64,000 nt of DNA, from assembly GCA_964016885.1 (NCBI GenBank), contig OZ024743.1, positions 131,378,001 to 131,442,000 on the forward strand. The letters are read 5' to 3'. Below are positions 3,001 to 64,000 of the stretch, piece after piece. The DNA comes from Eledone cirrhosa (lineage: Eukaryota). Positions within the stretch are counted from its first letter, which is position 1. Each line of letters starts with the position of its first letter. The notes below the pieces were generated by a model. The model was given only the letters and a program-made list of their open reading frames with translations. It did no database searches and had not been told where the DNA came from. A program made the translations under genes and the position numbers.

Positions 3001-3230
3001 TGGTGCTTGGTGTTTGGTGCTTGGTGTTTGGTGTTAGGTATTTGGTGCTTGGTGTTTGGTGTTTGGTGCTTGGTGTTTGGTGCTTGGTGTTTGGTGCTTG
3101 GTGTTTGGTGCTTGGTACTTGGTGCTTGGTGCTTGGTGTTAGGTGTTTGGTGCTTGGTGCTTGGTGTTTGGTTTTTGGTGCTTGGTGCTTGGTGTTTGGT
3201 GTTTGGGGCTTGCTGCTGGCTGCTTGGTGT
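1..3230 (+). repeat. Higher-order duplication: ~1-1040 repeated at ~2126-3230 (offset 2125, later 2188)
   Basis: Matching ORF pairs 2/2127, 12/2137, 184/2309, 341/2466, 659/2784, and the same order of variant monomers. Confidence 0.9.
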
Positions 3231-14760: not shown

Positions 14761-14929
14761 CTTGGTGTTTGGTGTTATATGCTTGGTGTTTGATGCTTGG
14801 TGCTTGGTGCTTGGTGTTTGGTGTTTGGTGTTTGATGCTTGGTGCTTGGTGTTTGGTGCTTGGTGCTTGGTGTTTGTACTTGGTGCTTGGTGCTTGGTGC
14901 TTGGTGTTTGGTGCTTGGTGCTTGGTGCT

Positions 14930-40600: not shown

Positions 40601-43600
40601 TTGGTGCTTGGTGCTTGGTGTTTGGTGTTTGCTGCTTGGTGTTTGATGCTTGGTGCTTGGTGGTTGGTATTTTGTGTTTGGTGCTTGGTGCTTGGTGTTT
40701 GGTGCTTGGTGCTTGGTGCTTGGTGTTTGGTTCTTGGTTCTTGGTGTTTGGTGTTTGGCGTTTGGTGTTTGCTGCTTGGTGCTTGGTGTTTGGTGCTTGG
40801 TGCTTGGTGTTTGGTGCCTGGTGCTTGGTGCTTGGTGCTTGGTGTTTGGTGTTTGGTGCTTGGTGCTTGGTGCTTGGAGTTTGGTGTTTGGTGCTTGGTG
40901 CTTGGTGCTTGGTGTTTGGTGCTTGGTGCTTGGTGTTTGGTGCTTGGTGCTTGGTGTTTGGTGTTTGGTGCTTGGTGCTTGGTGCTTGGTGCTTGGTGTT
41001 TGGTGTTTGGTGCTTGGTGTTTGGTGCTTGGTACTTGGTGCTTGGTGCTTGGTGTTAGGTGTTTGGTGCTTGGTGCTTGGTGTCTGGTTTTTGGTGCTTG
41101 GTTCTTGGTGTTTGGTGCTTGCTGCTGGCTGCTTGGTGTTTGGTGCTTGGTGATTGGTGCTTGGTGTTTGGTGTTTGGTGCTAGGTGCTTGGTGTTTGGT
41201 GCTTGGTGCTTGGTGTTTGTACTTGGTGCTTGGTGCTTGGTTCTTGGTGTTTGGTGCTTCGTGCTTCGTGTTTGGTGCTTGGTGCTTGGTGTTTGGTGCT
41301 TGGTGTTTGGTGCTTGGTGTTTGGTGCTTGGTGCTTGGTGCTTGGTGTTTGGTGCTTGGTGTTTGGTGCTTGGTGTTAGGTGTTTGGTGCTTGGTGCTTG
41401 GTGTTTGGTGTTTGGTGCTTGGTGTTTGGTGTTTGGTGTTATATGCTTGGTGTTTGATGCTTGGTGCTTGGTGCTTGGTGTTTGGCGCTTGGTGTTTGAT
41501 GCTTGGTGCTTGGTGCTTGGTGTTTGGTGCTTGGTGCTTGGTGTTTTTACTTGGTGCTTGGTGCTTGGTTCTTGGTGTTTGGTGCCTGGTGTTTGGTGTT
41601 TGGTGTTATATGCTTGGTGTTTGATGCTTGGTGCTTGGTGCTTGGTGTTTGGTGCTTGGTGTTTGATGCTTGGTGCTTGGTGCTTGGTGTTTGGTGCTTG
41701 GTGCTTGGTGTTTGTACTTGGTGCTTGGTGCTTGGTTCTTGGTGTTTGGTGCTTGGTGCTTGGTGTTTGGTGCTTGGTGCTTGGTGTTTGGTGCTTGGTG
41801 TTTGGTGCTTGGTGTTTGGTGCTTGGTGCTTGGTGCTTAGTGCTTGGTGTTTGGTGCTTGGTGTTTGGTGCTTGGTGTTTGGTGCTTGGTACTTGGTGCT
41901 TGGTGCTTCGTGTTAGGTGTTTGGTGCCTGGTGCTTGGTGTTTGGTGTTTGGTTTTTGGTGCTTGGTGTTTGGTGTTTGGTGTTTGGTGCTTGCTGCTGG
42001 CTGCTTGGTGTTTGATGCATGGTGATTTGTGCTTGGTGTTTGGTGCTGGGTGTTTGGTGTTTGATGCTTGGTGCTTGGTGTTTGGTGTTTGATGCTTGGT
42101 GCTTGGTGCTTGGTGTTTGGTGCTTGGTGTTTGGTGTTTGGTGCTTGGTCATTGGTGTTTCTACTTGGTGCTTGGTGCTTGGTTCTTGGTGTTTGGTGCT
42201 TGGTGCTTGGTGTTTGGTGTTATATGCTTGGTGTTTGATGCTTGGTGCTTGGTGCTTGGTGTTTGGTGTTTGGTGTTTGATGCTTGGTGCTTGGTGTTTG
42301 GTGCTTGGTGCTTGGTGTTTGTACTTGGTGCTTGGTGCTTGGTGCTTGGTGTTTGGTGCTTGGTATTTGGTGCTTGGTGCTTGGTGCTTGGTCCTTGGTG
42401 CTTGGTGTTTGGTGGTTGGTGTTTGGTGGTTGGTGTTAGGTGTTTGGTGCTTGGTGCTTGGTGTTTGGTGTTTGGTGCTTGGTGTTTGGTGTTTGGTGCT
42501 TGGTGTTTGGTGCTTGGTACTTGGTGCTTGGTGCTTGGTGTTAGGTGTTTGGTGCTTGGTGTTTGGTGCTTGGTGTTTGGTGCTTGGTGCTTGGTGCTTG
42601 GTGCTTGGTGTTTGGTGGTTGGTGTTTGGTGCTTGGTGTTTGGTGCTTGGTGTTACGTGTTTGGTGCTTGGTGCTTGGTGTTTGGTGTTTGGTGCTTGGT
42701 GTTTGGTGTTTGGTGCTTGGTGTTTGGTGCTTTTTGCTTGGTGCTTGGTGCTTGGTGTTTGGTGCTTGGTGCTGGGTGGTTGGTGTTTGGTGCTTGGTGT
42801 TTGGTGCTGGGTGCTTGGTGTTTGGTGCTGGGTGCTTGGTATTTGGTGCTTGGTGCTTGGTCTTTGGTGCTTGGTGTTTGGTGCTTGGTGCTTGGTGTGT
42901 GGTGCTTGGTGCTTGGTGTTTGGTGCTTGGTGCTTGGTGTTTGGTTTTTGGTGCTTGGTGCTTGGTGTTTGGTGTTTGGTGCTTGCTGCTGGCTGCTTGG
43001 TGTTTGATGCATGGTGATTGGTGCTTGGTGTTTGGTGCTTGGTGTTTGGTGTTTGATGCTTGGTGCTTGGTGCTTGGTGTTTGGTGCTTGGTGCTTGGTG
43101 CTTGGTGCTTGGTGTTTGGTGCTTGGTGTTTGGTGCTTGGTGTTTGGTGCTTGGTGCTTGGTGCTTGGTGCTTGGTGTTTGGTGGTTGGTGCTTGGTGCT
43201 TGGTGTTAGGTGTTTGGTGCTTGGTGCTTGGTGGTTGGTGTTTGGTGCTTGGTGTTTGGTGCTGGGTGCTTGGTTTTTGGTGCTGGGTGCTTGGTGTTTG
43301 GTGCTTGGTGCTTGGTGTTTGGTGCTTTGTGTTTGGTGCTTGGTGCTTGGTGCTTGGTGTTTGGTGTTTGGTGCTTGGTGTTTGGTGCTTGGTGCTTGGT
43401 GTTTGGTTTTTGGCGCTTGGTGTTTGGTGTTTGGTGCTTGGTGCTTGGTGCTTGGTGTTTGTACTTGGTGCTTGGTGATTGGTGTTTGGTTCTTGGTTCT
43501 TGGTGTTTGGTGTTTGGCGTTTGGTGTTTGGTGCTTGGTGCTTGGTGTTTGGTGCTTGGTGCTTGGTGTTTGGTGCCTGGTGCTTGGTGCTTGGTGTTTG

Positions 43601-45930
43601 GTGTTTGGTGCTTGGTGCTTGGTGCTTGGAGTTTGGTGTTTGGTGCTTGGTGCTTTGTGTTTTGTGTTTGGTGTTTGGTTTTTGGTGCTTGGTGCTTGGT
43701 CCTTGGTGTTTGGTGCTGGGTGCTTTGTGTTTGGTGCTTGGTGCTTGGTGTTTGGTGTTTGCTGCTTGGTGTTTGATGCTTGGTGCTTGGTGCTTGGTGT
43801 TTTGTGTTTGGTGCTTGGTTCTTGGTGTTTGGTGCTTGGTGCTTGGTACTTGGTGTTTGTACTTGGTGCTTGGTGCTTGGTGTTTGGTTCTTGGTTCTTG
43901 GTGTTTGGTACTTGGTGCTTGATGCTTGATGTTTGGTGTTTGGTGCTTGGTGCTTGGTGTTAGGTGTTTGGTGCTTGGTCCTTGGTGTTTGGTGCTTGGT
44001 GTTTGGTGTTTGCTGTTTGGTGTTTGGTGTTTCGTGTTTGGTGTTTGCTGTTTGGTGTCTGCTTTTTGGTGTTTGCTGTTTGGTGTCTGCTTTTTGGTGT
44101 TTAGTGTTTGCTGTATGGTGTTTGGTGTTTGCTGTTTGGTGTTTGGTCTTTGGTGCTTGGTGTTTGGTGCTTGGTGCTTGGTGTTTGGTGTTTGGTGCTT
44201 GGTGCTTGGTGTTTGGTGTTTGGTGCTTGGTGTTTGGTGTTTGGTGCTTGGTGTCTGGTGCTTGGTGTTTGGTTTTTGGTGCTTGGTGTTTGGTGTTTGG
44301 TGCTTGGTGTTTGGTGTTTGGTGTTTGGTGCTTGGTGCTTGGTGTTTGGTGTTTGGTGTTTGGTGCTTGGTGTCTGGTGCTTGGTGTTTGGTGTTTGGTG
44401 CTTGGTGTTTGGTGTTTGGTGTTTGGTGCTTGGTGTCTGGTGCTTGGTGTTTGGTGTTTGGTGCTTGGTGTTTGGTGTTTGGTGTTTGGTGCTTGGTGCT
44501 TGGTGCTTGGTGTTTTGTGTTTGGTGCTTGGTGCTTGGTGTTTGGTGCTTGGTGCTGGGTGGTTGGTGTTTGGTGCTTGGTGTTTGGTGCTGGGTGCTTG
44601 GTGTTTGGTGCTGGGTGCTTGGTATTTGGTGCTTGGTGCTTGGTCTTTGGTGCTTGGTGTTTGGTGCTTGGTGCTTGGTGTTTGGTGCTTGGTGCTTGGT
44701 GTTTGGTGCTTGGTGCTTGGTGTTTGGTTTTTGGTGCTTGGTGCTTGGTGTTTGGTGTTTGGTGCTTGCTGCTGGCTGCTTGGTGTTTGATGCATGGTGA
44801 TTGGTGCTTGGTGTTTGGTGCTTGGTGTTTGGTGTTTGATGCTTGGTGCTTGGTGCTTGGTGTTTGGTGCTTGGTGCTTGGTGCTTGGTGCTTGGTGTTT
44901 GGTGCTTGGTGTTTGGTGCTTGGTGTTTGGTGCTTGGTGCTTGGTGCTTGGTGCTTGGTGTTTGGTGGTTGGTGCTTGGTGCTTGGTGTTTTGTGTTTGG
45001 TGCTTGGTGCTTGGTGTTTGGTGCTTGGTGCTTGGTGGTTGGTGTTTGGTGCTTGGTGTTTGGTGCTGGGTGCTTGGTTTTTGGTGCTGGGTGCTTGGTG
45101 TTTGGTGCTTGGTGCTTGGTGTTTGGTGCTTGGTGTTTGGTGCTTGGTGTTTGGTGCTTGGTGCTTGGTGCTTAGTGCTTGGTGTTTGGTGCTTGGTGTT
45201 AGGTGTTTGGTGCTTGGTGTTTGGTGTTTGGTGCTTGGTGTTTGGTGCTTGGTGTTTGGTGTTAGGTGTTTGGTGCTTGGTGTTTGGTGTTTGGTGCTTG
45301 GTGTTTGGTGCTTGGTGTTTGGTGCTTGGTGTTTGGTGCTTGGTACTTGGTGCTTGGTGCTTCGTGTTAGGTGTTTGGTGCTTGGTGCTTGGTGTTTGGT
45401 GTTTGGTTTTTGGTGCTTGGTGTTTGGTGTTTGGTGTTTGGTGCTTGCTGCTGGCTGCTTGGTGTTTGATGCATGGTGATTTGTGCTTGGTGTTTGGTGC
45501 TGGGTGTTTGGTGTTTGATGCTTGGTGCTTGGTGTTTGGTGTTTGATGCTTGGTGCTTGGTGCTTGGTGTTTGGTGCTTGGTGTTTGGTGTTTGGTGCTT
45601 GGTCATTGGTGTTTCTACTTGGTGCTTGGTGCTTGGTTCTTGGTGTTTGGTGCTTGGTGCTTGGTGTTTGGTGTTATATGCTTGGTGTTTGATGCTTGGT
45701 GCTTGGTGCTTGGTGTTTGGTGTTTGGTGTTTGATGCTTGGTGCTTGGTGTTTGGTGCTTGGTGCTTGGTGTTTGTACTTGGTGCTTGGTGCTTGGTGCT
45801 TGGTGTTTGGTGCTTGGTATTTGGTGCTTGGTGCTTGGTGCTTGGTCCTTGGTGCTTGGTGTTTGGTGGTTGGTGTTTGGTGGTTGGTGTTAGGTGTTTG
45901 GTGCTTGGTGCTTGGTGTTTGGTGTTTGGT
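30830..45930 (+). repeat. ~5 kb block ~30830-35800 repeated at ~40980-45930 (offset 10147, falling to 10119)
   Basis: ORF pairs 31007/41154, 31872/42019, 32864/43011, 33779/43926 (10147), 34668/44794 (10126), 35354/45473 (10119). Shared private variants include GGTGTGTGG (~32750/~42897) and TTGATGC TTGATGT (~33772/~43919). Confidence 0.92.
35470..38805 (+). repeat. Higher-order duplication, offset 2214: ~35470-36590 vs ~37685-38805
   Basis: ORF pairs 35880/38094, 36150/38364, 36510/38724. Confidence 0.88.
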
Positions 45931-48900
45931 GCTTGGTGTTTGGTGCTTGGTGTTTGGTTCTTGGTTCTTGGTGTTTGGTACTTGGTGCTTGGTGCTTGAT
46001 GTTTGGTGTTTGGTGCTTGGTGTTTGGTGCTTGGTACTTGGTGCTTGGTGCTTGGGGTTAGGTGTTTGGTGCTTGGTGCTTGGTGTTTGGTTTTTGGTGC
46101 TTGGTGCTTGGTGTTTGGTGTTTGGTGCTTGCTGCTGGCTGCTTGGTGTTTGATGCTTGGTGATTGGTGCTTGGTGTTTTGTGCTTGGTGTTTGGTGTTT
46201 GGTGCTAGGTGCTTGGTGTTTGGTGCTTGGTGCTTGGTGCTTGGTGTTTGGTGTTTGGTGTTAGGTGCTTCATGCTTGGTGTTTGGTGCTTGGTGCTGAG
46301 TGGTTGGTGTTTAGTGCTTGGTGTTTGGTGCTGGGTGCTTGGTGTTTGGTGCTTGGTGCTTGGTCTTTGGTGCTTGGTGTTTGGTGTTTGGTGCTTGGTG
46401 CTTGGTGCTTGGTGTTTGGTGCTTGGTGCTTGGTGTTTGGTGCTTGGTGCTTAGTGTTTGGTGCTTGGTGCTTAGTGTTTGGTGCTAGGTGCTTGGTGTT
46501 TGGTGCTTGGTGCTTGGTGTTTGGTGCCTGGTGCTTGGTGTTTGGTGTTTGGTGTTTGGTGCTTGGTGCTTGGTGTTTGGTGTTTGCTGTTTGCTGTTTG
46601 GTGTTTGTTGTTTGGTGTTTGTTGTTTGGTGTTTGCTGTTTGGTGTTTGGTGTTTGCTTTTTGGTGTTTGGTGTTTGCTGTATGTTGTTTGCTGTTTGGT
46701 GTTTGGTGTTTGGTGTTTGGTGCTTGGTGCTTGCTGCTGGCTGCTTGGTGCTTGGTGTTTGGTGCCTGGTGCTTGGTGCTTGGTGCTTGGTGTTTGGTGT
46801 TTGGTGCTTGGTGCTTGGAGTTTGGTGTTTGGTGCTTGGTGCTTGGTATTTCGTGTTTCGTGTTTGGTTTTTGGTGCTTGGTGCTTGGTGCTTGGTCCTT
46901 GGTGTTTGGTGCTGGGTGCTTGGTGTTTGGTGCTTGGTGCTTGGTTTTTGGTGCTTTGTGTTTGGTGCTTGGTGCTTGGTGTTTGGTGCTTGGTGCTTGG
47001 TGTTTGGTGCTTGGTGCTTGGTGCTTGGTGTTTGGTTTTTGGTGCTTGGTGTTTGGTGTTTGGTGTTTGGTGCTTGCTGCTGGCTGCTTGGTGTTTGATG
47101 CATGGTGATTTGTGCTTGGTGTTTGGTGCTTGGTGTTTGGTGTTTGATGCTTGGTGCTTGGTGTTTGGTGTTTGATGCTTGGTGCTTGGTGCTTGGTGCT
47201 TGGTGCTTGGTGTTTGTTGTTTGGTGTTTGCTGTTTGGTGTTTGGTGTTTGCTTTTTGGTGTTTGGTGTTTGCTGTATGTTGTTTGGTGTTTGGTGTTTG
47301 GTGTTTGGTGTTATATGCTTGGTGTTTGATGCTTGGTGCTTGCTGCTTGGTGTTTGGCGCTTGGTGTTTGATGCTTGGTGCTTGGTGCTTGGTGTTTGGT
47401 GCTTGGTGCTTGGTGTTTGTACTTGGTGCTTGGTGCTTGGTTCTTGGTGTTTGGTGCCTGGTGTTTGGCGTTTGGTGCTTGGTGTTTGGTGTTTGGTGTT
47501 ATATGCTTGGTGTTTGATGCTTGGTGCTTGGTGCTTGGTGTTTGGTGCTTGGTGTTTGATGCTTGGTGCTTGGTGCTTGGTGTTTGGTGCTTGGTGCTTG
47601 GTGTTTATACTTGGTGCTTGGTGCTTGGTTCTTGGAGTTTGGTGCTTGGTGCTTGGTGTTTGGTGCTTGGTGCTTGGTGTTTGGTGCTTGGTGTTTGGTG
47701 CTTGGTGTTTGGTGCTTGGTGCTTGGTGCTTAGTGCTTGGTGTTTGGTGCTTGGTGTTAGGTGTTTGGTGCTTGGTGCTTGGTGTTTGGTGTTTGGTGCT
47801 TGGTGTTTGGTGCTTGGTGTTTGGTGTTAGGTGTTTGGTGCTTGGTGTTTGGTGTTTGGTGCTTGGTGTTTGGTGCTTGGTGTTTGGTGCTTGGTGTTTG
47901 GTGCTTGGTACTTGGTGCTTGGTGCTTCGTGTTAGGTGTTTGGTGCTTGGTGCTTGGTGTTTGGTTTTTGGTGCTTGGTGCTTGGTGTTTGGTGTTTGGT
48001 GCTTGCTGCTGGCTGCTTGGTGTTTGATGCTTGGTGATTGGTGCTTGGTGTTTTGTGCTTGGTGTTTGGTGTTTTGTGCTAGGTGCTTGGTGTTTGGTGC
48101 TTGGTGCTTGGTGCTTGGTGTTTGGTGTTTGGTTTTAGGTGCTTGGTGCTTGGTGTTTGGTGCTTGGTGCTGGGTGGTTGGTGTTTAGTGCTTGGTGTTT
48201 GGTGTTGGGTGCTTGGTGTTTGGTGCTTGGTGCTTGGTCTTTGGTGCTTGGTGTTTGGTGTTTGGTGCTTGGTGCTTGGTGCTTGGTGTTTGGTGCTTGG
48301 TGCTTGGTGTTTGGTGCTTGGTGCTTAGTGTTTGGTGCTTGGTGCTTAGTGTTTGGTGTTTGGTGCTTGGTGCTTGGTGTTTAGTGCTTAGTGTTTGGTG
48401 CTTGGTGCTTGGTGTTTGGTATTTGCTGTTTGCTGTTTGGTGTTTGGTGTTTGCTTTTTGGTGTTTGGTGTTTGCTGTATGTTGTTTGGTGTTTGGTGTT
48501 TGGTGTTTGGTGTTTGGTGCTTGTTGCTTAGTGTTTGGTGCTTGGTGCTTGGTGTTTGGTGCCTGGTGCTTGGTGCTTGGTGCTTGGTGTTTGGTGTTTG
48601 GTGCTTGGTGCTTGGAGTTTGGTGTTTGGTGCTTGGTGCTTGGTGTTTCGTGTTTCGTGTTTCGTTTTTGGTGCTTGGTGCTTGGTGCTTGGTCCTTGGT
48701 GTTTGGTGCTGGGTGCATTGTGTTTGGTGCTTGGTGCTTGGTGCTTGGTGTTTGGTGTTTGCTGCTTGGTGTTTGATGCTTGGTGCTTGGTGGTTGGTGT
48801 TTTGTCGTTGGTGCTTGGTGCTTGGTGTTTGGTGCTTGGTGCTTGGTGCTTGGTGTTTGGTTCTTGGTTCTTGGTGTTTGGTGTTTGGCGTTTGGTGTTT

Positions 48901-49010
48901 GGTGCTTGGTGCTTGGTGTTTGGTGCTTGGTGCTTGGTGTTTGGTGCCTGGTGCTTGGTGCTTGGTGCTTGGTGTTTGGTGTTTGGTGCTTGGTGCTTGG
49001 TGCTTGGAGT
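39130..49010 (+). repeat. Dispersed duplication ~39130-40880 vs ~47300-49010 (offset 8172, then 8130)
   Basis: ORF pairs 39203/47375, 39911/48083, 40020/48192, 40405/48535. Confidence 0.87.
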
Positions 49011-50560
49011 TTGGTGTTTGGTGCTTGGTGCTTTGTGTTTTGTGTTTGGTGTTTGGTTTTTGGTGCTTGGTGCTTGGTCATTGGTGTTTGGTGCTGGGTG
49101 CTTTGTGTTTTGTCCTTGGTGCATGGTGTTTGGTGTTTGCTGCTTGGTGTTTGATGCTTGGTGCTTGGTGCTTGGTACTTGGTGTTTGTACTTGGTGCTT
49201 GGTGCTTGGTGTTTGGTTCTTGGTTCTTGGTGTTTGGTACTTGGTGCTTGGTGCTTGATGTTTGGTGTTTGGTGCTTGGTGTTTGGTGCTTGGTACTTGG
49301 TGCTTGGTGCTTGGGGTTAGGTGTTTGGTGCTTGGTGCTTGGTGTTTGGTTTTTGGTGCTTGGTGCTTGGTGTTTGGTGTTTGGTGCTTGCTGCTGGCTG
49401 CTTGGTGTTTGATGCTTGGTGATTGGTGCTTGGTGTTTTGTGCTTGGTGTTTGGTGTTTGGTGCTAGGTGCTTGGTGTTTGGTGCTTGGTGCTTGGTGCT
49501 TGGTGTTTGGTGTTTGGTGTTAGGTGCTTCATGCTTGGTGTTTGGTGCTTGGTGCTGAGTGGTTGGTGTTTAGTGCTTGGTGTTTGGTGCTGGGTGCTTG
49601 GTGTTTGGTGCTTGGTGCTTGGTCTTTGGTGCTTGGTGTTTGGTGTTTGGTGCTTGGTGCTTGGTGCTTGGTGTTTGGTGCTTGGTGCTTGGTGTTTGGT
49701 GCTTGGTGCTTAGTGTTTGGTGCTTGGTGCTTAGTGTTTGGTGCTAGGTGCTTGGTGTTTGGTGCTTGGTGCTTGGTGTTTGGTGCCTGGTGCTTGGTGT
49801 TTGGTGTTTGGTGTTTGGTGCTTGGTGCTTGGTGTTTGGTGTTTGCTGTTTGCTGTTTGGTGTTTGTTGTTTGGTGTTTGTTGTTTGGTGTTTGCTGTTT
49901 GGTGTTTGGTGTTTGCTTTTTGGTGTTTGGTGTTTGCTGTATGTTGTTTGCTGTTTGGTGTTTGGTGTTTGGTGTTTGGTGCTTGGTGCTTGCTGCTGGC
50001 TGCTTGGTGCTTGGTGTTTGGTGCCTGGTGCTTGGTGCTTGGTGCTTGGTGTTTGGTGTTTGGTGCTTGGTGCTTGGAGTTTGGTGTTTGGTGCTTGGTG
50101 CTTGGTATTTCGTGTTTCGTGTTTGGTTTTTGGTGCTTGGTGCTTGGTGCTTGGTCCTTGGTGTTTGGTGCTGGGTGCTTGGTGTTTGGTGCTTGGTGCT
50201 TGGTCTTTGGTGCTTTGTGTTTGGTGCTTGGTGCTTGGTGTTTGGTGCTTGGTGCTTGGTGTTTGGTGCTTGGTGCTTGGTGCTTGGTGTTTGGTTTTTG
50301 GTGCTTGGTGTTTGGTGTTTGGTGTTTGGTGCTTGCTGCTGGCTGCTTGGTGTTTGATGCATGGTGATTTGTGCTTGGTGTTTGGTGCTTGGTGTTTGGT
50401 GTTTGATGCTTGGTGCTTGGTGTTTGGTGTTTGATGCTTGGTGCTTGGTGCTTGGTGCTTGGTGCTTGGTGTTTGTTGTTTGGTGTTTGCTGTTTGGTGT
50501 TTGGTGTTTGCTTTTTGGTGTTTGGTGTTTGCTGTATGTTGTTTGGTGTTTGGTGTTTGG
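45940..50560 (+). repeat. Higher-order duplication, offset 3259: ~45940-47300 vs ~49200-50560
   Basis: ORF pairs 46003/49262, 46265/49524, 46489/49748, 47102/50361. Confidence 0.88.
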
Positions 50561-52859
50561 TGTTTGGTGTTTGGTGCTTGTTGCTTGGTGTTTGGTGCTT
50601 GGTGCTTGGTGTTTGTTGCCTGGTGCTTGGTGCTTGGTGCTTGGTGTTTGGTGTTTGGTGCTTGGTGCTTGGAGTTTGGTGTTTGGTGCTTGGTGCTTGG
50701 TGTTTCGTGTTTCGTGTTTGGTTTTTGGTGCTTGGTGCTTGGTGCTTGGTCCTTGGTGTTTGGTGCTGGGTGCATTGTGTTTGGTGCTTCGTGCTTGGTG
50801 CTTGGTGTTTGGTGTTTGCTGCTTGGTGTTTGATGGTTGGTGTTTTGTGTTTGGTGCTTGGTGCTTGGTGTTTGGTGCTTCGTGCTTGGTGCTTGGTGTT
50901 TGGTTCTTGGTTCTTGGTGTTTGGTGTTTGGCGTTTGGTGTTTGGTGCTTGGTGCTTGGTGTTTGGTGCTGGGTGCTTGGTGTTTGGTGCCTGGTGCTTG
51001 GTGCTTGGTGCTTGGTGTTTGGTGTTTGGTGCTTGGTGCTTGGTGCTTGGAGTTTGGTGTTTGGTGCTTGGTGCTTTGTGTTTTGTGTTTGGTGTTTGGT
51101 TTTTGGTGCTTGGTGCTTGGTCATTGGTGTTTGGTGCTGGGTGCTTTGTGTTTTGTGCTTGGTGCTTGGTGTTTGGTGTTTGCTGCTTGGTGTTTGATGC
51201 TTGGTGCTTGGTGCTTGGTGTTTTGTGTTTGGTGCTTGGTTCTTGGTGTTTGGTGCTTGGTGCTTGGTACTTGGTCTTTGTACTTGGTGCTTGGTGCTTG
51301 GTGTTTGGTTCTTGGTTCTTGGTGTTTGGTACTTGGTGCTTGGTGCTTGAAGTTTGGTGTTTGGTGCTTGGTGTTTGGTGCTTGGTACTTGGTGCTTGGT
51401 GCTTGGGGTTAGGTGTTTGGTGCTTGGTGCTTGGTGTTTGGTTTTTGGTGCTTGGTGCTTGGTGTTTGGTGTTTGGTGCTTGCTGCTGGCTGCTTGGTGT
51501 TTGATGCTTGGTGATTGGTGCTTGGTGTTTTGTGCTTGGTGTTTGGTGTTTGATGCTTGGTGCTTGGTGCTTGGTGCTTGGTGCTTGGTGTTTGGTGCTT
51601 GGTCCTTGGTGTTAGGTGCTGGGTGCTTTGTGTTTGGTGCTTGGTGCTTGGTGTTTGGTGTTTGCTGCTTGGTGCTTGATGCTTGGTGTTTGGTGCTTGG
51701 TGCTTGGTGCTTGGTGTTTGTACTTGGTGCTTGGTGCTTGGTGTTTGGTTCTTGGTTCTTGGTGTTTGGTGTTTGGCATTTGGTGTTTGGTGCTTGGTGC
51801 TTGGTGTTTGGTGCTTGGTGCTTGGTGTTTGGTGCCTGGTGCTTGGTGCTTGGTGCTTGGTGTTTGGAGTTTGGTGTTTGGTGCTTGGTGCTTGGTGCTT
51901 GGTCCTTGGTGTTTGGTGCTGGGTGCTTTGTGTTTGGTGATTGGTGCTTGGTGTTTGGTGTTTGCTGCTTGGTGTTTGATGCTTGGTGCTTGGTGTTTTG
52001 TGTTTGGTGCTTGGTGCTTGGTGTTTGGTGCTTGGTGCTTGGTGCTTGGTGTTTGTACTTGGTGCTTGGTGTTTGGTGTTTGGTTCTTGGTTCTTGGTGT
52101 TTGGTACTTGGTGCTTGGTGCTTGGTGCTTGGTGTTAGGTATTTGGTGCTTGGTGCTTCGTGTTTGGTGCTTGGTGTTTGGTGTTTGCTGTTTGGAGTTT
52201 GGTGTTTGGTGTTTGGTTTTGCTGTCTGGTGTCTGCTTTTTGGTGTTTATTGTTTGCTGTATGGTGTTTGCTGTTTCGTGTTTGGTGTTTGCTGTTTGGT
52301 GTTTGGTCTTTGGTGCTTGGTGTTTGGTGCTTGGTGTTTGGTGTTTGGTGCTTGCTGCTTGGTGTTTGGTGTTTGGTGCTTGGTGCTTGGTGTTTGGTGT
52401 TTAGTGTTTGGTGCTTGGTGTCTGGTGCTTGGTGTTTGGTGTTTGGTGTTTAGTGTTTGGTGCTTGGTGTCTGGTGCTTGGTGTTTGGTGTTTGGTTCTT
52501 TGTTCTTGGTGTTTGGTACTTGGTGCTTGGTGTTTGGTGTTTGCTGTTTGGTGTTTGGTGTTTGGTGTTTGCTGTTTGCTGTTTGGTGTCTGCTTTTTGG
52601 TGTTTAGTGTTTGCTGTATGGTGTTTGGTGTTTGCTGTTTGGTGTTTGGTCTTTGGTGCTTGGTGTTTGGTGCTCGGTGCTTGGTGTTTGGTATTCGGTG
52701 CTTGCTGCTTGGTGTTTGGTGCTTGGTGTTTGGTGTTTGGTGTTTGGTGCTTGGTGTCTGGTGCTTGGTGTTTGGTGCTTGGTTTTTGGTGTTTGGTGCT
52801 TGGTGTTTGGTGTTTGGTGTTTGGTGCTTGGTGCTTGGTGTTTGGTGTTTGGTGTTTGG

Positions 52860-53520
52860 TGCTTGGTGTCTGGTGCTTGGTGTTTGGTGTTTGGTGCTTG
52901 GTGTTTGGTGTTTGGTGTTTGTTGCTTGGTGCTTGGTGCTTGGTGTTTGGTGTTTGGTGTTTGGTGCTTGGTGCTTGGTGTTTGGTGCTTGGTGCTGAGT
53001 GGTTGGTGTTTGGTGCTTGGTGTTTGGTGCTGGGTGCTTGGTTTTTGGTCCTGGGTGCTTGGTGTTTGGTACTTGGTGCTTGGTGCTTGGTGTTTGGTGC
53101 TTGGTGCTTGGTGTTTGGTGCTTGGTGCTTAGTGTTTGGTGCTAGGTGCTTGGTGTTTGGTGCTTGGTGTTTGGTGCTTGGTGCTTGGTGTTTGGTGTTT
53201 GGTGTTTGGTGCTTGGTGTTTGGTGCTTGGTGCTTGGTGTTTGGTGTTTGGTGCTTGGTGCTTGGTGCTTGGTGTTTGGTGTTTGGTGTTTGGTGCTTGG
53301 TGCTTGGTGTTTGGTGCTTGGTGCTGAGTGGTTGGTGTTTGGTGCTTGGTGTTTGGTGCTGGGTGCTTGGTTTTTGGTCCTGGGTGCTTGGTGTTTGGTG
53401 CTTGGTGCTTGGTGCTTGGTGTTTGGTGCTTGGTGCTTGGTGTTTGGTGCTTGGTGCTTAGTGTTTGGTGCTAGGTGCTTGGTGTTTGGTGCTTGGTGTT
53501 TGGTGCTTGGTGCTTGGTGT
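52860..53520 (+). repeat. 329-bp (47-monomer) tandem duplication
   Basis: Marker TGAGTGG...GGTCCTGGG at 52996 and 53325. ORF pairs 53136/53465 and 53146/53475. Confidence 0.88.
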
Positions 53521-54399
53521 TTGGTGTTTGGTGTTTGGTGCTTGGTGCTTGGTGTTTGCTGTTTGCTGTTTGGTGTTTGTTGTTTGGTGTTTGTTGTTTG
53601 GTGTTTGCTGTTTGGTGTTTGGTGTTTGCTATTTGGTGTTTGGTGTTTGCTGTATGTTGTTTGCTGTTTGGTGTTTGGTGTTTGGTGTTTGGTGTTTGGT
53701 GTTTGGTGTTTGGTGCTTGGTGTTTGGTGCTTGGTGCTTGGTGTTTGGTGCCTGGTGCTTGGTGCTTGATGCTTGGTGTTTGGCTTTTGGTGCTTGGTGC
53801 TTGGTGCTTGGTCCTTGGTGTTTGGTGCTGGGTGCTTTGTGTTTGGTGCTTGGTGCTTGGTGCTTGGTGTTTGGTGTTTGCTGCTTGGTGTTTGATGCTT
53901 GGTGCTTGGTGCTTGGTGTTTTGTGTTTGGTGCTTGGTGCTTGGTGTTTGGTGCTTGGTGCTTGGTGCTTGGTGTTTGTACTTGGTGCTTGGTGCTTGGT
54001 GTTTGGTTCTTGGTTCTTGGTGTTTGGTGTTTTGCGTTTGGTGTTTGGTGCTTGGTGTTTGGTGCTTGGTGCTTGGTGTTTGGTGCCTGGTGCTTGGTGC
54101 TTGGTGCTTGGTGTTTGGTGTTTGGTGCTTGGTGCTTGGAGTTTGGTGTTTGGTGCTTGGTGCTTGGTGCTTGGTCCTTGGTGTTTGGTGCAGGGTGCTT
54201 TGTGTTTGGTGATTGGTGCTTGGTGTTTGGTGTTTGCTGCTTGGTGCTTGGTGCTTGGTGTTTCTACTTGGTGCTTGGTGCTTGGTGTTTGGTTCTTGGT
54301 TCTTGGTGTTTGGTACTTGGTGCTTGGTGCTTGGTGCTTGATGTTTGGTGTTTGGTGCTTGGTGTTTGGTGCTTGGTGGTTGGTGCTTGGTGCTTGGTG

Positions 54400-57100
54400 C
54401 TTGGTGTTACGTATTTGGTGCTTGGTGCTTGGTGTTTGGTGCTTGGTGTTTGGTGTTTGCTGTTTGGTGTTTGGTGTTTGCTGTTTGGTGTTTGCTGTTT
54501 GGTGTTTGGTGTTTGCTGTTTGGTGTTTGGTCTTTGGTGCTTGGTGTTTGGTGCTTGGTGTTTGGTGTTTGGTGCTTGGTGCTTGGTGCTTGGTGTTTGG
54601 TGCTTGGTGCTTGGTGTTTTGTGTTTCGTGTTTGGTTTTTGGTGCTTGGTGCTTGGTGCTTGGTCCTTGGTGTTAGGTGCTGGGTGCTTTGTGTTTGGTG
54701 CTTGGTGCTTGGTGTTTGGTGTTTGCTGCTTGGTGCTTGATGCTTGGTGTTTGGTGCTTGGTGCTTGGTGCTTGGTGTTTGTACTTGGTGCTTAGTGCTT
54801 GGTGTTTGGTTCTTGGTTCTTGGTGTTTGGTGCTTGGCATTTGGTGTTTGGTGCTTGGTGCTTGGTGTTTGGTGCTTGGTGCTTGGTGTTTGGTGCCTGG
54901 TGCTTGGTGCTTGGTGCTTGGTGTTTGGAGTTTGGTGTTTGGTGCTTGGTGCTTGGTGCTTGGTCCTTGGTGTTTGGTGCTGGGTGCTTTGTGTTTGGTG
55001 ATTGGTTCTTGGTGTTTGATGCTTGGTGCTTGGTGTTTTGTGTTTGGTGCTTGGTGCTTGGTGTTTGGTGCTTGGTGCTTGGTGCTTGGTGTTTGTACTT
55101 GGTGCTTGGTGTTTGGTGATTGATTCTTGGTTCTTGGTGTTTGGTACTTGGTGCTTGGTGCTTGGTGCTTGGTGTTAGGTATTTGGTGCTTGGTGCTTCG
55201 TGTTTGGTGCTTGGTGTTTGGTGTTTGCTGTTTGGAGTTTGGTGTTTGGTGTTTGGTTTTGCTGTCTGGTGTCTGCTTTTTGTTGTTTAGTGTTTGCTGT
55301 ATGGTGTTTGCTGTTTCGTGTTTGGTGTTTGCTGTTTGGTGTTTGGTCTTTGGTGCTTGGTGTTTGGTGCTTGGTGTTTGGTGTTTGGTGCTTGCTGCTT
55401 GGTGTTTGGTGTTTGGTGCTTGGTGCTGGGTGTTTGGTGTTTAGTGTTTGGTGCTTGGTGTCTGGTGCTTGGTGTTTGGTGTTTGGTGCTTGGTGTTTGG
55501 TGTTTGGTGATTGGTGCTTGGTGTTTGGTGTTTGCTGCTTGGTGTTTGATGCTTGGTGCTTGGTGTTTTGTGTTTGGTGCTTGGTGCTTGGTGTTTGGTG
55601 CTTGATGTTTGGTGTTTGGTACTTGGTGTTTGGTGCTTGGTGCTTGGTGCTTGGTGCTTGGTGCTTGGTGCTTGGTGTTAGGTATTTGGTGCTTGGTGCT
55701 TGGTGTTTGGTGCTTGGTGTTTGGTGTTTGCTGTTTGGTGTTTGGTGTTTGCTGTTTGGTGTTTGCTGTTTGGTGTTTGGTGTTTGCTGTTTGGTGTTTG
55801 GTCTTTGGTGCTTGGTGTTTGGTGCTTGGTGTTTGGTGTTTGGTGCTTGGTGCTTGGTGCTTGGTGTTTGGTGCTTGGTGCTTGGTGTTTTGTGTTTCGT
55901 GTTTGGTTTTTGGTGCTTGGTGCTTGGTGCTTGGTCCTTGGTGTTAGGTGCTGGGTGCTTTGTGTTTGGTGCTTGGTGCTTGGTGTTTGGTGTTTGCTGC
56001 TTGGTGCTTGATGCTTGGTGTTTGGTGCTTGGTGCTTGGTGCTTGGTGTTTGTACTTGGTGCTTAGTGTTTGGTGTTTGGTTCTTGGTTCTTGGTGTTTG
56101 GTGCTTGGCATTTGGTGTTTGGTGCTTGGTGCTTGGTGTTTGGTGCTTGGTGTTTGGTGTTTGGTGCCTGGTGCTTGGTGCTTGGTGCTTGGTGTTTGGA
56201 GTTTGGTGTTTGGTGCTTGGTGCTTGGTGCTTGGTCCTTGGTGTTTGGTGCTGGGTGCTTTGTGTTTGGTGATTGGTTCTTGGTGTTTGATGCTTGGTGC
56301 TTGGTGTTTTGTGTTTGGTGCTTGGTGCTTGGTGTTTGGTGCTTGGTGCTTGGTGCTTGGTGTTTGTACTTGGTGCTTGGTGTTTGGTGTTTGGTTCTTG
56401 GTTCTTGGTGTTTGGTACTTGGTGCTTGGTGCTTGGTGCTTGGTGTTAGGTATTTGGTGCTTGGTGCTTCGTGTTTGGTGCTTGGTGTTTGGTGTTTGCT
56501 GTTTGGAGTTTGGTGTTTGGTGTTTGGTTTTGCTGTCTGGTGTCTGCTTTTTGTTGTTTAGTGTTTGCTGTATGGTGTTTGCTGTTTCGTGTTTGGTGTT
56601 TGCTGTTTGGTGTTTGGTCTTTGGTGCTTGGTGTTTGGTGCTTGGTGTTTGGTGTTTGGTGCTTGCTGCTTGGTGTTTGGTGTTTGGTGCTTGGTGCTGG
56701 GTGTTTGGTGTTTAGTGTTTGGTGCTTGGTGTCTGGTGCTTGGTGTTTGGTGTTTGGTGCTTGGTGTTTGGTGTTTGGTGATTGGTGCTTGGTGTTTGGT
56801 GTTTGCTGCTTGGTGTTTGATGCTTGGTGCTTGGTGTTTTGTGTTTGGTGCTTGGTGCTTGGTGTTTGGTGCTTGATGTTTGGTGTTTGGTGCTTGGTGT
56901 TTGGTGCTTGGTGCTTGGTGCTTGGTGCTTGGTGCTTGGTGCTTGGTGTTAGGTATTTGGTGCTTGGTGCTTGGTGTTTGGTGCTTGGTGTTTGGTGTTT
57001 GCTGTTTGGTGTTTGGTGTTTGCTGTTTGGTGTTTGCTGTTTGGTGTTTGGTGTTTGCTGTTTGGTGTTTGGTCTTTGGTGCTTGGTGTTTGGTGCTTGG
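54400..57100 (+). repeat. Tandem 1271-bp higher-order unit; related copies at ~51600-52440 and ~57830-58917
   Basis: ORF pairs 54677/55948, 55200/56471, 55609/56880 (1271), 51616/54677 (3061), 55609/57902 (2293). Markers GGCATTTGG and GGTTTTGCTGTCTGG. Confidence 0.88.
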
Positions 57101-58904
57101 TGTTTGGTGTTTGGTGCTTGGTGCCTGGTGTTTGGTGTTTGGTGTTTGGTGCTTGGTGTCTGGTGCTTGGTGTTTGGTGCTTGGTGTTTGTTGTTTGGTG
57201 CTTGGTGCTTGGTGTTTGGTGTTTGGTGCTTGGTGTTTGGTGTTTGGTGCTTGTTGCTTGGTGCTTGATGTTTGGTGCTTGGTGCTTGGTGTTTGGTGCT
57301 GGGTGCTTGGTGCTTGTTATTTGGTTTTTGGTGCTTGGTGCTTGGTGTTTGGTGTTTGGTGTTATATGCTTGGTGTTTGATGCTTGGTGCTTGGTGCTTG
57401 GTGTTTGGTGTTTGGTGTCTGGTGCTTGGTGCTTGGTGTTTGGTGCTTGGTGCTGAGTGGTTGGTGTTTGGTGCTTGGTGTTTGGTGCTGGGTGCTTGGT
57501 GTTTGGTGCTGGGTGCTTGGTGTTTGGTGCTTGGTGCTTGGTCTTTGGTGCTTGGTGTTTGGTGCTTGGTGCTTGGTGCTTGGTGTTTGGTGCTTGGTGC
57601 TTGGTGTTTGGTGCTTGGTGCTTGGTGTTTGCTGTTTGCTGTTTGCTGTTTGTTGTTTGGTGTTTGTTGTTTGGTGTTTGCTGTTTGGTGTTTGGTGTTT
57701 GCTTTTTGGTGTTTGGTGTTTGCTGTATGTTGTTTGCTGTTTGGTGTTTGGTGTTTGGTGCCTGGTGCTTGGTGCTTGGTGCTTGGTGTTTGGTGTTTGG
57801 TGCTTGGTGCTTGGTGTTTGGTGTTTGCTGCTTGGTGTTTGATGCTTGGTGCTTGGTGTTTTGTGTTTGGTGCTTGGTGCTTGGTGTTTGGTGCTTGATG
57901 TTTGGTGTTTGGTACTTGGTGTTTGGTGCTTGGTGCTTGGTGCTTGGTGCTTGGTGCTTGGTGCTTGGTGTTAGGTATTTGGTGCTTGGTGCTTGGTGTT
58001 TGGTGCTTGGTGTTTGGTGTTTGCTGTTTGGTGTTTGGTGTTTGGTGTTTGCTGTTTGGTGTTTGCTGTTTGGTGTTTGGTGTTTGCTGTTTGGTGTTTG
58101 GTCTTTGGTGCTTGGTGTTTGGTGCTTGGTGTTTGGTGTTTGGTGCTTGGTGCTTGGTGCTTGGTGTTTGGTGCTTGGTGCTTGGTGTTTTGTGTTTCGT
58201 GTTTGGTTTTTGGTGCTTGGTGCTTGGTGCTTGGTCCTTGGTGTTAGGTGCTGGGTGCTTTGTGTTTGGTGTTTGCTGCTTGGTGCTTGATGCTTGGTGT
58301 TTGGTGCTTGGTGCTTGGTGCTTGGTGTTTGTACTTGGTGCTTGGTGCTTGGTGTTTGGTTCTTGGTTCTTGGTGTTTGGTGTTTGGCATTTGGTGTTTG
58401 GTGCTTGGTGCTTGGTGTTTGGTGCTTGGTGCTTGGTGTTTGGTGCCTGGTGCTTGGTGCTTGGTGCTTGGTGTTTGGTGTTTGGGGCTTGGTGCTTGGA
58501 GTTTGGTGTTTGGTGCTTGGTGCTTGGTGCTTGGTGTTTGGTGCTGGGTGCTTTGTGTTTGGTGCTGGGTGCTTTGTGTTTGGTGATTGGTTCTTGGTGT
58601 TTGATGCTTGGTGCTTGGTGTTTTGTGTTTGGTGCTTGGTGCTTGGTGTTTGGTGCTTGGTGCTTGGTGCTTGGTGTTTGTACTTGGTGCTTGGTGTTTG
58701 GTGTTTGGTTCTTGGTTCTTGGTGTTTGGTACTTGGTGCTTGGTGCTTGGTGCTTGGTGTTAGGTATTTGGTGCTTGGTGCTTCGTGTTTGGTGCTTGGT
58801 GCTTGGTGTTTGCTGTTTGGAGTTTGGTGTTTGGTGTTTGGTTTTGCTGTCTGGTGTCTGCTTTTTGGTGTTTAGTGTTTGCTGTATGGTGTTTGCTATT
58901 TCGT

Positions 58905-58930
58905 GTTTGGTGTTTGCACCCAACACCAAA
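58905..58930. other. Strand-switch (head-to-head) junction between the two arms
   Basis: Sequence reads ...TCGTGTTTGGTGTTTG-C-ACCCAACACCAAA... with no spacer. C58917 can be assigned to either arm. Confidence 0.97.
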
Positions 58931-61900
58931 CACCAAACATCAAACACCAATCACGAATCACCAAACAGCAAACAGCAAACACCAAACACCAAACACCAAA
59001 CACCAAGCACCAAGCACCAAACACCAAACACCAAGCACCAAGCACCAAACACCAAATACCAAGCACCAAGCACCAAGCACCAAGCACCAAACACCAAGCA
59101 CCAAGCACCAAGCACCAAACACCAAGCACCAAACACCAAGCACCAGACACGAAGCACCAAGCACCAAATACCAAGCACCAAAAACCAAGCACCAAGCTCC
59201 AAGGAACAAACACCAAGCACCAAACAACAAGCACCAAGCACCAAGCATGAAACACCAAGCACCAAGCGCCAAACACCAAACACCAAGCACCAAGCACCAA
59301 ATACCAAGCACCAAGCACCAAGCACCAAGCACCAAACACCAAACACCAAACACCAAACAGCAAACAGCAAACTCCAAACACCAAACACCAAACAGCAAAC
59401 ACCAAACACCAAACAGCAAACACTAAACAGCAAACAGCAAACACCAAACACCAACCAGCAAACACCAAGCACCAAACACCAAGCACCAAGCAACAAGCAC
59501 CAATCACCAAGCACCAAGCACTAAACACCAAACACCAAGCACCAAGCACCATGGACCAAACACCAAGCATCAAGCACCAAGCACCAAACGCCAAGCACCA
59601 AGCACCAAACACCAAGCACCAAGCACCATGCACCAAACACCAAGCACCAAAGACCAAGCACCAAATACCAAGCACCAAGCACCAAACACCAATCACCAAG
59701 CACCAAGCACCAAACACCAAGAACCCAGCACCAATCACTAAACACCAAACACCAAGCACCAAGCACCAAGTACCAAACTCCAAACACCAAACACCAAGCA
59801 CAAAGCACCAAATCGCAAGCACCAAACACCAAGCACCAAGCACCAAACACCAAACACCAAGCACCAAGCACCATGCACCAATCACCAAACACCAAGCACC
59901 AAGCACCAAACACCAAACACTAAGCACCAAGCACCAAACACCAAACACCAAGCACCTAGCACCAAGCACCAAGCACCAAGCACCAAACACCAAGCACCAA
60001 ACACCAAGCACCAGACACGAAGCACCAAGCACCAAATACCAAGCACCAAAAACCAAGCACCAAGCTCCAAGGACCAAACACCAAGCACCAAACACCAAAC
60101 ACCAAGCACCAAGCATGAAACACCAAGCACCAAGCGCCAAACACCAAACACCAAGCACCAAGCACCAAATACCAAGCACCAAGCACCAAGCACCAAGCAC
60201 CAAACACCAAACACCAAACACCAAACACAAAACAGCAAACAGCAAACTCCAAACACCAAACACCAAACAGCAAACACCAAACACCAAACAGCAAACACCA
60301 AACAGCAAACACTAAACACCAACCAGCAAACACCAAACACCAAACACCAAACAGCAAACGCCAAACAGCAAACGCCAAACACCAAACGCCAAACAGTAAG
60401 CACCAAGCACCAAACACCAAACACCAAGCACCAAGCACCAAACACCAAACACCAAGCACCAAGCACCAAACACCAAACACCAAGCACCAAGCACTAAACA
60501 CCAAACACCAAGCACCAAGCACCAAGCCCCAAACACCAAGCACCAAGCACCAAGCACCAAACACCAAGCACCAAGCACCAAACACGAACCAGCAAACACC
60601 AAACACCAAACACCAAGCACCAAGCACCAAACACCAAACACCAAGCACCTAGCACCAAAGAGCAAACACCAAGCCCCAAGCACCAAACACCCAACACCAA
60701 ACACCAAACATCAAACACCAATCACGAATCACCAAACAGCAAACAGCAAACACCAAACACCAAACACCAAACACCAAGCACCAAGCACCAAACACCAAAC
60801 ACCAAGCACCAAGCACCAAACACCAAATACCAAGCACCAAGCACCAAGCACCAAGCACCAAACACCAAGCACCAAGCACCAAGCACCAAACACCAAGCAC
60901 CAAACACCAAGAACTAGACACGAAGCACCAAGCACCAAATACCAAGCACCAAAAACCAAGCACCAAGCTCCAAGGACCAAACACCAAGCACCAAACACCA
61001 AACACCAAGCACCAAGCATGAAACACCAAGCACCAAGCGCCAAACACCAAACACCAAGCACCAAGCACCAAATACCAAGCACCAAGCACCAAGCACCAAG
61101 CACCAAACACCAAACACCAAACACCAAACAGCAAACAGCAAACTCCAAACACCAAACACCAAACAGCAAACACCAAACACCAACCAGCAAACACCAAGCA
61201 CCAAACACCAAGCACCAAGCACCAAATCGCAAGCACCAAACACCAAGCACCAAGCACCAAACACCAAACACCAAGCACCAAGCACCATGCACCAATCACC
61301 AAACACCAAGCACCAAGCACCAAAGACCAAACACTAAGCACCAAGCACCAAACACCAAACACCAAGCACCTAGCACCAAGCACCAAGCACCAAGCACCAA
61401 ACACCAAGCACCAAGCACCAAGCCCCAAACACCAAGCACCAAACACCAAGCACCAGACACGAAGCACCAAGCACCAAATACCAAGCACCAAAAACCAAGC
61501 ACCAAGCTCCAAGGACCAAACACCAAGCACCAAACACCAAACACCAAGCACCAAGCCTGAAACACCAAGCACCAAGCGCCAAACACCAAACACCAAGCAC
61601 CAAGCACCAAATACCAAGCACCAAGCACCAAGCACCAAGCACCAAACACCAAACACCAAACACCAAACACCAAACAGCAAACAGCAAACTCCAAACACCA
61701 AACACCAAACAGCAAACACCAAACACCAAACAGCAAACACCAAACAGCAAACACCAAACACCAACCAGCAAACACCAAACACCAAACACCAAACAGCAAA
61801 CGCCAAACATCAAACGCCAAACACCAAACGCCAAACAGCAAACGCCAAACACCAAACGCCAAACAGTAAGCACCAAGCACCAAACACCAAACACCAAGCA

Positions 61901-64000
61901 CCAAGCACCAAACACCAAACACCAAGCACCAAGCACCAAACACCAAACACCAAGCACCAAGCACTAAACACCAAACACCAAGCACCAAGCACCAAGCCCC
62001 AAACACCAAGCACCAAACACCAAGCACCAAACACCAAGCACCAAACACCAAGCACCAAACACCAAGCACCAAGCACCAAGCACCAAACACCAAGCACCAA
62101 GCACCAAACACCAACCAGCAAACACCAAACACCAAACACCAAACAGCAAACACCAAACACCAAACACCAAATAGCAAACGCCAAAAAGCAAACGCCAAAC
62201 CCCAAATGCCAAACAGCAAACACCAAGCACCAAACACCAAACACCAAGCGCCAAGCACCAAACACCAAACACCAAGCTCCAAGCACCAAACACCAAACAC
62301 CAAGCACCAAGCACCAAAGAGCAAACACCAAGCCCCAAGCACCAAACACCCAACACCAAACACCAAACATCAAACACCAATCACGAATCACCAAACAGCA
62401 AACAGCAAACACCAAACACCAAACACCAAACACCAAGCACCAAGCACCAAACACCAAACACCAAGCACCAAGCACCAAGCACCAAGCACCAAACACCAAG
62501 CACCAAGCACCAAGCACCAAACACCAAGCACCAAACACCAAGCACCAGTCACGAAGCACCAAGCACCAAATACCAAGCACCAAAAACCAAGCACCAAGCT
62601 CCAAGGACCAAACACCAAGCACCAAACACCAAACACCAAGCACCAAGCATGAAGCACCAAGCACCAAGCGCCAAACACCAAAAACCAAGCACCAAGCACC
62701 AAATACCAAGCACCAAGCACCAAGCACCAAGCACCAAACACCAAACACCAAACACCAAACAGCAAACAGCAAACTCCAAACACCAAACACCAAACAGCAA
62801 ACACCATCACCAAACAGCAAACACCAAACAGCAAACAGCAAACACCAAACACCAACCAGCAAACACCAAGCACCAAACACCAAGCACCAAGCAACAAGCA
62901 CCAATCAACAAGCACCAAGCACTAAACACCAAACCCCAAGCACCAAGCACCTTGGACCAAACAACAAGCATCAAGCACCAAGCACCAAACGCCAAGCACC
63001 AAGCACCAAACACCAAGCACCAAGCACCATGCACCAAACACCAAGCACCAAAGACCAAGCACCAAATACCAAGCACCAAGCACCAAACACCAATCACCAA
63101 GCACCAAGCACCAAACACCAAGAACCCAGCACCAATCACTAAACACCAAACACCAAGCACCAAGCACCAAATCCCAAGCACCAAACACCAAGCACCAAGC
63201 ACCAAACACCAAACACCAAGCACCAAGCACCATGCACCAATCACCAAACACCAAGCACCAAGCACCAAACACCAAACACCAAGCACCAAGCACCAAACAC
63301 CAAACACCAAGCACCTAGCACCAAGCACCAAGCACCAAGCACCAAACACCAAGCAGCAAGCACCAAGCCCCAAACACCAAGCACCAAACACCAAGCACCA
63401 GACACGAAGCACCAAGCACCAAATACCAAGCACCAAAAACCAAGCACCAAGCTCCAAGGACCAAACACCAAGCACCAAACACCAAACACCAAGCACCAAG
63501 CATGAAACACCAAGCACCAAGCGCCAAACACCAAACACCAAGCACCAAGCACCAAATACCAAGCACCAAGCACCAAGCACCAAGCACCAAACACCAAACA
63601 CCAAACACCAAACACCAAACAGCAAACAGCAAACTCCAAACACCAAACACCAAACAGCAAACACCAAACACCAAACAGCAAACACCAAACAGCAAACACC
63701 AAACACCAAACACCAACCAGCAAACACCAAACACCAAACACCAAACAGCAAACGCCAAACATCAAACGCCAGACACCAAACGCCAAACAGCAAACGCCAA
63801 ACACCAAACGCCAAACAGCAAGCACCAAGCACCAAACACCAAACACCAGGCACCAAGCACCAAACACCAAACACCAAGCACCAAGCACCAAACACCAAAC
63901 ACCAAGCACCAAGCACTAAACACCAAACACCAAGCACCAAGCACCAAGCACCAAATACCAAGCACCAAACACCAAGCACCAAACACCAAGCACCAAGCAC
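58917..64000 (-). repeat. Same 7-bp satellite in inverted orientation (reads CACCAAA/CACCAAG on +), about 730 monomers; open at the right edge
   Basis: Reverse complement of TTGGTGY throughout. Composition flips abruptly from G/T-rich to C/A-rich. Confidence 0.99.
58917..64000 (-). repeat. Higher-order unit of the inverted arm, about 1.7 kb, three copies, each with two related sub-blocks
   Basis: Marker TCACGAATCA at 58951, 60722, 62381 (spacing 1771 = 253x7, 1659 = 237x7). Marker AG(A/T)CACGAAG...GCTCCAAGGA at 59145, 60013, 60916, 61455, 62547, 63400. Confidence 0.9.

Follow-up and report, generated by a model that had tools for sequence, protein, structure and literature searches.

What does an abrupt change of strand within a satellite repeat record? 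The question is raised by a 64,000-nucleotide stretch of the Eledone cirrhosa genome (hereafter the window; C4:131,378,001-131,442,000, on a scaffold of 378.8 Mb in a genome of 3.0 Gb), in which two arms of one satellite meet at position 58917. A first-pass annotation of the window had taken the site for a blunt or near-blunt end-joining event, either an end-to-end fusion or an inversion breakpoint. The site is here found to be an ordinary intra-satellite strand switch. It is neither a fusion scar nor an end of an intact simple inversion, and it is probably not an assembly artefact. With high probability it represents one of ten diverged copies of a single join in a 14.6-Mb array. That join probably arose a single time, through opposite-strand end-joining or a template switch during replication, and was probably multiplied afterwards by duplications on the megabase scale.

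Base-level structure of the strand switch

The window consists throughout of one 7-bp satellite, TTGGTGY on its G-rich strand. Positions 1 to 58916 are rich in G and T, and positions 58917 to 64000 in C and A; the strand changes only once, and a skew scan of the window placed the change of sign between 58001 and 60000. The G-rich strands run into the join from both sides, which defines its head-to-head polarity. The 16-mer ending at 58917 has 13 + strand occurrences in the window, 12 of which run on as G-strand satellite, while the junction alone does not. Sequences of 8 to 60 nt starting at 58917 have three + strand occurrences (58917, 60688, and 62347), and the base before the right-arm sequence is A at the parents 60688 and 62347 and G at the junction. 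Because the parent contexts differ from the junction at the base before 58917, exactly one C (58917) is common to both arms and there is zero filler; parents matching 299-300 of 300 bases confirm the 1-nt overlap. Anchor counts and parent alignment therefore bear out the first-pass description of a head-to-head junction with one shared C and no filler, and the coordinates given there for the parent contexts elsewhere in the window (56586-56610, ~60684, and ~62343) are correct (Table 1).

The left arm is the end of a G-oriented run spanning about 1.0 Mb (nine interior samples), with higher-order periods that lengthen from about 1.3 kb next to the junction to 1.8-2.5 kb farther out. Between 16 and 58865 it shows more than 80 one-base slips of the 7-bp register, all in one direction and reflecting 6-bp monomers within the higher-order units; one register slip was seen in the 5 kb of the right arm. 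The inverted block that begins with the right arm closes beyond the window, at a tail-to-tail join at C4:131,693,277.

Table 1. Features of the strand switch in the window (window coordinates) and positions of all copies of the join on C4
Feature	Position	Strand	Description
Left arm	1..58916	+	G/T-rich TTGGTGY satellite, 'alpha' subfamily
Left-arm parent context, uninterrupted	56586..56610	+	The window has 12 such contexts for the 16-mer anchor
Private substitution	58898..58898	+	A in the window copy, G in the other 9 junction copies
Shared C	58917..58917	.	Overlap of 1 nt at the head-to-head join (type A, 10 copies in the genome)
Right arm	58917..64000	-	Start of the 256,361-bp inverted 'delta' subfamily block
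Right-arm parent context, uninterrupted	60684..60747	-	Anchor match
Second right-arm parent context, uninterrupted	62343..62406	-	Anchor match
Type A copies (head-to-head)	C4 130.209, 131.437 (window), 133.037, 134.327, 134.761 (reversed), 135.989, 137.734, 138.740, 140.594, 141.034 Mb		34-nt pattern search

Strand switches along the array

A 46-nt sequence across the junction had eight exact matches in the genome. A 34-nt version had 10 matches at three or fewer mismatches, against 0 for the reversed-pattern control, and all of these lie in the C4 array between 130.2 and 141.0 Mb (type A; Table 1). Each of the 10 has a tail-to-tail partner (family H) on its C-rich/delta side, 104,862 to 256,361 bp away. 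Family H comprises 11 joins, ten of them centred on AAGCTT (one with a substitution) and one rewritten by deletion. Nine of the AAGCTT-centred joins are paired with type A and one, at 142.890 Mb, stands alone; the eleventh, rewritten join is the partner of the window copy, at 131.693 Mb. Family E has three copies, and B, C, D, and F are single-copy head-to-head joins, so that with A there are at least five head-to-head join types.

In the sequence read (about 1.6 of the 14.6 Mb of the array), satellite lies on both sides of the join in opposite orientation within one large array, and switches of both polarities are found along it. Switches resolved at sequence level number 28, including 14 tail-to-tail joins, and 24 of the 28 descend from three founder joins. 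Altogether 29 switches were located and the total is at least 31 (28 resolved, one next to a 200-N run, and two or more that are placed only approximately, near 139.95 Mb). The located switches alternate in polarity at a density of about 2 per Mb. A first map of 27 switches was incomplete, as 3 of 40 later samples were in an unexpected orientation, and a further two were subsequently placed. Four switches escaped the exact-gap patterns and were found by direct reading, at 134.327, 134.981, and 136.967 Mb and by the N run. Outside the array, the two loosest generic junction searches returned only scattered single matches (at 4 and 6 places), which were taken as chance, the controls of these searches being nonzero (160 and 3 per strand).

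Large-scale repeat units

K-mer clustering assigned the inverted block to the delta subfamily from end to end, with alpha before A and 'beta' after H. The G-oriented runs of different units carry the subfamilies in the same order (Spearman 0.76 over 44 tiles, with tiles that are non-independent nearest neighbours and three reversed samples included unflipped). Nine same-strand type A copies are spaced 0.44-1.85 Mb apart; the two longest A-A intervals (1.75 and 1.85 Mb) hold further inverted blocks of other subfamilies, and the 1.66-Mb interval holds an inverted unit. The reversed unit at 134.5-135.0 Mb mirrors 130.0-130.4 Mb in sequence as well as in the order of its joins (E, A, H), and the nearest relatives of its A and H joins are the pair at 130.2-130.4 Mb.

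The alternative that survives best is a simple two-break inversion, in which the type A join and its tail-to-tail partner would be the two ends and the reciprocal junction would have been rewritten by deletions before amplification. In its favour, an H join accompanies each of the type A copies, and the deletion-rewritten H join at 131.693 Mb implies that reciprocals can be lost. However, no tail-to-tail join was found to carry the two missing halves (the best of five tested matched 27 of 31 bases, with a repeat background of 22-27), and a reciprocal of type A was also absent from the generic genome list of tail-to-tail joins. Furthermore, delta is found at both ends of the block, with alpha before and beta after it, which is not the swapped pattern of an in-place inversion, and H has an older lineage without A. 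A simple inversion is thus unlikely, if still the most credible of the alternatives. The first-pass annotation had expected a search for the reciprocal tail-to-tail junction to separate the two cases, its presence pointing to inversion and its absence to fusion. This dichotomy fails, since tail-to-tail joins exist and none is reciprocal to type A.

A clean inverted insertion is not supported either, given that the G arm of H does not start at the break of the left parent (offsets of hundreds of bases or more).

Sequence divergence of the copies

The right arms of type A copies differ by 4.3-16.6 substitutions per kb, with a median of 8.4. In 14,316 aligned bases 54 changes are private and only 5 sites are shared, a star pattern with 0.38% per copy that cannot give the order of the duplications. 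Private substitutions occur in the flanks of each of the ten copies, at 2-12 per about 1.4 kb. In the window copy, private changes number 5 over 1,422 bases of the right arm and 2 over 320 of the left, and a rearrangement lies about 325 bases upstream of the join. Judged by their sequence, the ten type A copies are diverged paralogues.

Family H includes one strongly divergent member. Over 1,366 bases, 38 private changes were counted in the lone copy at 142.89 Mb, whereas eight other H copies have 1-6 each; the comparison excluded two whose left arms are rearranged. The delta block of the lone copy passes into a different subfamily and has no type A join. The G arm of the H join at 130.44 Mb has 10 variants in common with this diverged copy, and its other arm groups with the rest (L009, L135). 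Such sharing is likely the product of gene conversion over 12 Mb, a process that would blur the descent of the copies.

The private substitutions also bear on whether the switch was made by the assembly, through a chimeric or fold-back read or a mis-join. The sequence is highly repetitive, the array contains at least one N run, and the analysis used assembly sequence alone, all of which leave room for an error of this kind. Against it stand the occurrence of a base-exact join in 10 N-free places, each with private substitutions in its flanks, and the membership of the two arms in different subfamilies, where a fold-back would give a palindrome. In addition, one copy lies in reverse within a larger inverted duplicate, the A and H joins of which find their closest relatives in another pair, as described above. 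The unit at 134.28-134.47 Mb was read whole and contains no N, and the delta block beside the window copy is C-oriented and N-free over the 238,000 bases read, the 3 kb before the partner locus lying outside that reading. An artefact is accordingly very improbable. At a larger scale, one 200-N run in the array adjoins an orientation change, and the long-range order of the array may therefore rest partly on scaffolding.

Interstitial position and telomeric repeats

The array occupies C4:128,822,884-143,422,343 (bounds by sampling), which is 34-38% along C4. Both flanks are non-satellite and the array is interstitial. It holds kilobase higher-order repeats and several subfamily domains, and its outer ends are C-rich on the left and G-rich on the right. 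On the basis of its size, higher-order structure, and interstitial position, it is possibly a centromere or a heterochromatin block and is regarded here as a candidate for either.

Several other features were seen in and around the array. Two tRNA-Arg(TCG) genes 1.47 kb apart lie just outside its left end (L106:489-561, 1962-2037), possibly a tRNA gene repeat bordering the array there. Open reading frames in the right flank (L067:3-1727, L068:1-414) appear to resemble LINE retrotransposon proteins. About 0.6 kb of an unrelated short tandem repeat lies between the 200-N run and the satellite, at the orientation change (L227, middle), and is the only non-satellite insert seen in the about 1.6 Mb of array read. 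Elsewhere on C4, a roughly 28-bp tandem repeat is present at 127.0 Mb (L055) and a roughly 43-bp tandem repeat at the right end (L073, last 6 kb).

Eight-unit matches to TTAGGG number 21,966 forward and 19,166 reverse genome-wide, counted regardless of chromosome position, and a region of at least 128 kb at C1:217.84-217.97 Mb is rich in TTAGGG runs. The first and last 6 kb of C4 contain neither an array of the 7-bp satellite nor a TTAGGG array; the true ends of C4 are probably unassembled.

These data bear on the reading of the join as a telomere-telomere fusion scar, in which two ends capped by a G-rich repeat would have been joined head to head. The polarity does match, the human 2q13 fusion site being a head-to-head interstitial telomere in the available portion of its description (PMC7215372), and the window join is likewise interstitial. 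The same source, in that portion, reports that head-to-head telomeric stretches also arise by inversion. Unlike 2q13, the window join lies inside a 14.6-Mb array and is not a single join, there being ten copies that alternate with tail-to-tail joins, and at least five head-to-head join types (A, B, C, D, and F) occur. The polarity is reversed at the two outer ends of the array. The repeat is TTGGTGY and not TTAGGG, of which the genome has more than 41,000 eight-unit matches, and no array of the 7-mer is found in the end 6 kb of C4. A single fusion scar is refuted by the copy number, the alternation, the outer-end polarity, and the identity of the repeat, leaving a fusion origin with a negligible probability. 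Of the two readings offered in the first-pass annotation, a near-blunt opposite-strand join in the satellite, most simply an inversion-type breakpoint, is retained, and the end-to-end fusion is abandoned on account of the ten copies, the alternation, and the non-TTAGGG repeat.

Overlaps at the joins

Overlaps between the parent sequences are 1 nt at A, 2 nt at C, E, and H, 1 nt at the H deletion, 0 nt at F, and probably 0 nt at D, and filler is absent in all 7 join types with resolvable parents. Under a chance model of random G-strand to C-strand joins of the satellite (200,000 trials), an overlap of at least 1 nt is expected in 17.1% of cases and of at least 2 nt in 3.0%. The 1-nt overlap of a single join is weak evidence by itself. 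Overlaps of at least 1 nt occur in 5 of 7 join types against 17% by chance (p about 0.002) and 2-nt overlaps in 3 of 7 (p 0.0009), in a set of n=7 from which B was left out, in which the parents of D are ambiguous, and in which the delta-side parent of H matched over only 60 bases. The overlaps fit either end-joining or template switching, two mechanisms that they do not separate at so small an n.

Three resolved overlaps (A, E, and H) involve a GC step, the only self-complementary dinucleotide of the repeat. The anchors for the two parent contexts have 51 and 28 occurrences in the array sequence read, junction copies included. A recurrent hotspot, meaning a fragile or programmed site that produced the join on many independent occasions, could draw on these three overlaps but is exceedingly improbable, since all 10 copies have the same base and the same kilobase-scale flanks even though the parent contexts are common, and since independent events gave different joins (B, C, D, E, and F).

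Proposed origin and amplification

A single origin followed by copying may be envisaged in three steps. In the first, a broken or stalled alpha G-rich strand would have been joined to the opposite strand of delta through one shared base. The two strands of the repeat have no long homology, and so ordinary homologous recombination could not have made the join. In the second, a burst of unequal exchange or break-induced replication would have raised the number of units to the 10 observed. The macro-unit copied would consist of a G-oriented run, the type A join, the inverted delta block, and the tail-to-tail join, 0.4-1.9 Mb in all. In the third, units changed size, one unit was inverted, and one tail-to-tail join was rewritten by deletion, changes that can be read in the units themselves.

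The type A join may itself mark the seam left when a segment with an older tail-to-tail join H in it was first duplicated, a proposal we favour slightly. Tandem duplication of a segment with one switch would, by its geometry, create a switch of the other polarity at the seam. The lone H copy is strongly diverged and its delta block lacks a type A join, for which reasons H looks older and A may be the seam. The lone copy could instead have lost its type A join later. The type A join is regarded as a passenger mark of array growth, and no function is proposed for it.

Relation to other satellite arrays

Microhomology joins are known from satellite arrays, including an inversion in maize cent10, and break-induced replication with out-of-register restart is held to drive array growth, according to the available part of a review (PMC8997354). 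The Eledone joins resemble these in having short overlaps. In contrast, the Eledone overlaps are only 0-2 nt and fit classical end-joining equally well.

The alpha-satellite monomer is 171 bp and that of the Eledone array 7 bp. Inverted blocks of hundreds of kb within a higher-order array, as well as megabase duplications, are common to the Eledone array and to alpha arrays of the D1Z7 type; the Eledone block is present in ten copies, compared to one to three, and the centromere role of the Eledone array is only a candidate one. For active alpha-satellite arrays such as D1Z7, large inversions, duplications, and inverted duplications are described in the accessible text of a recent study (10.64898/2025.12.09.693231).

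The closest likeness is to human HSat3 and beta satellite, which are also multi-megabase short-repeat arrays with many internal switches. More than 200 orientation breakpoints are given for HSat3B5 and beta satellite (10.1101/2021.07.12.452052) and about 129 switches per chr9 haplotype (PMC13684623), both figures from the accessible parts of these texts. The available part of another text reports that the count of HSat3/beta-satellite switches scales with array length (r = 0.90), reads this as a by-product of expansion, and describes one haplotype in which an inverted array was later duplicated (10.64898/2026.07.22.740206). The Eledone array differs in its repeat, in its density of about 2 switches per Mb, in having joins resolved to the base, and in the descent of 24 of 28 from three founders. 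Human switches are not classified by descent in the accessible main texts, and supplements may do so. In a literature search with thin coverage of subscription journals, no description of the 7-bp repeat TTGGTGY or of amplified switch junctions was found.

Strand switches in large satellite arrays are already well known, and what is added here is a clean case of switches multiplying by copying. The single junction is ordinary; its value is as a marker of tenfold megabase-scale amplification. It provides base-level evidence that very large duplications carry an existing strand switch with them, and of a 0.4-1.9 Mb level of repetition above the kilobase higher-order repeats. A note of caution also follows: chromosome fusion should not be concluded from the head-to-head polarity of a G-rich repeat alone. 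The suggestion that switches are a by-product of expansion becomes directly testable by clustering junction sequences and counting founders. We tentatively raise the possibility, for which the chances appear somewhat below even, that the main source of new switches in giant satellite arrays is the copying of a few founder joins within a megabase macro-repeat, as opposed to fresh inversions. If so, founder copying would account for the correlation between switch number and array length in human HSat3 and beta satellite, and in Eledone the joins would be lineage marks dating the burst of 0.4-1.9-Mb duplications that built most of a 14.6-Mb, possibly centromeric, array.
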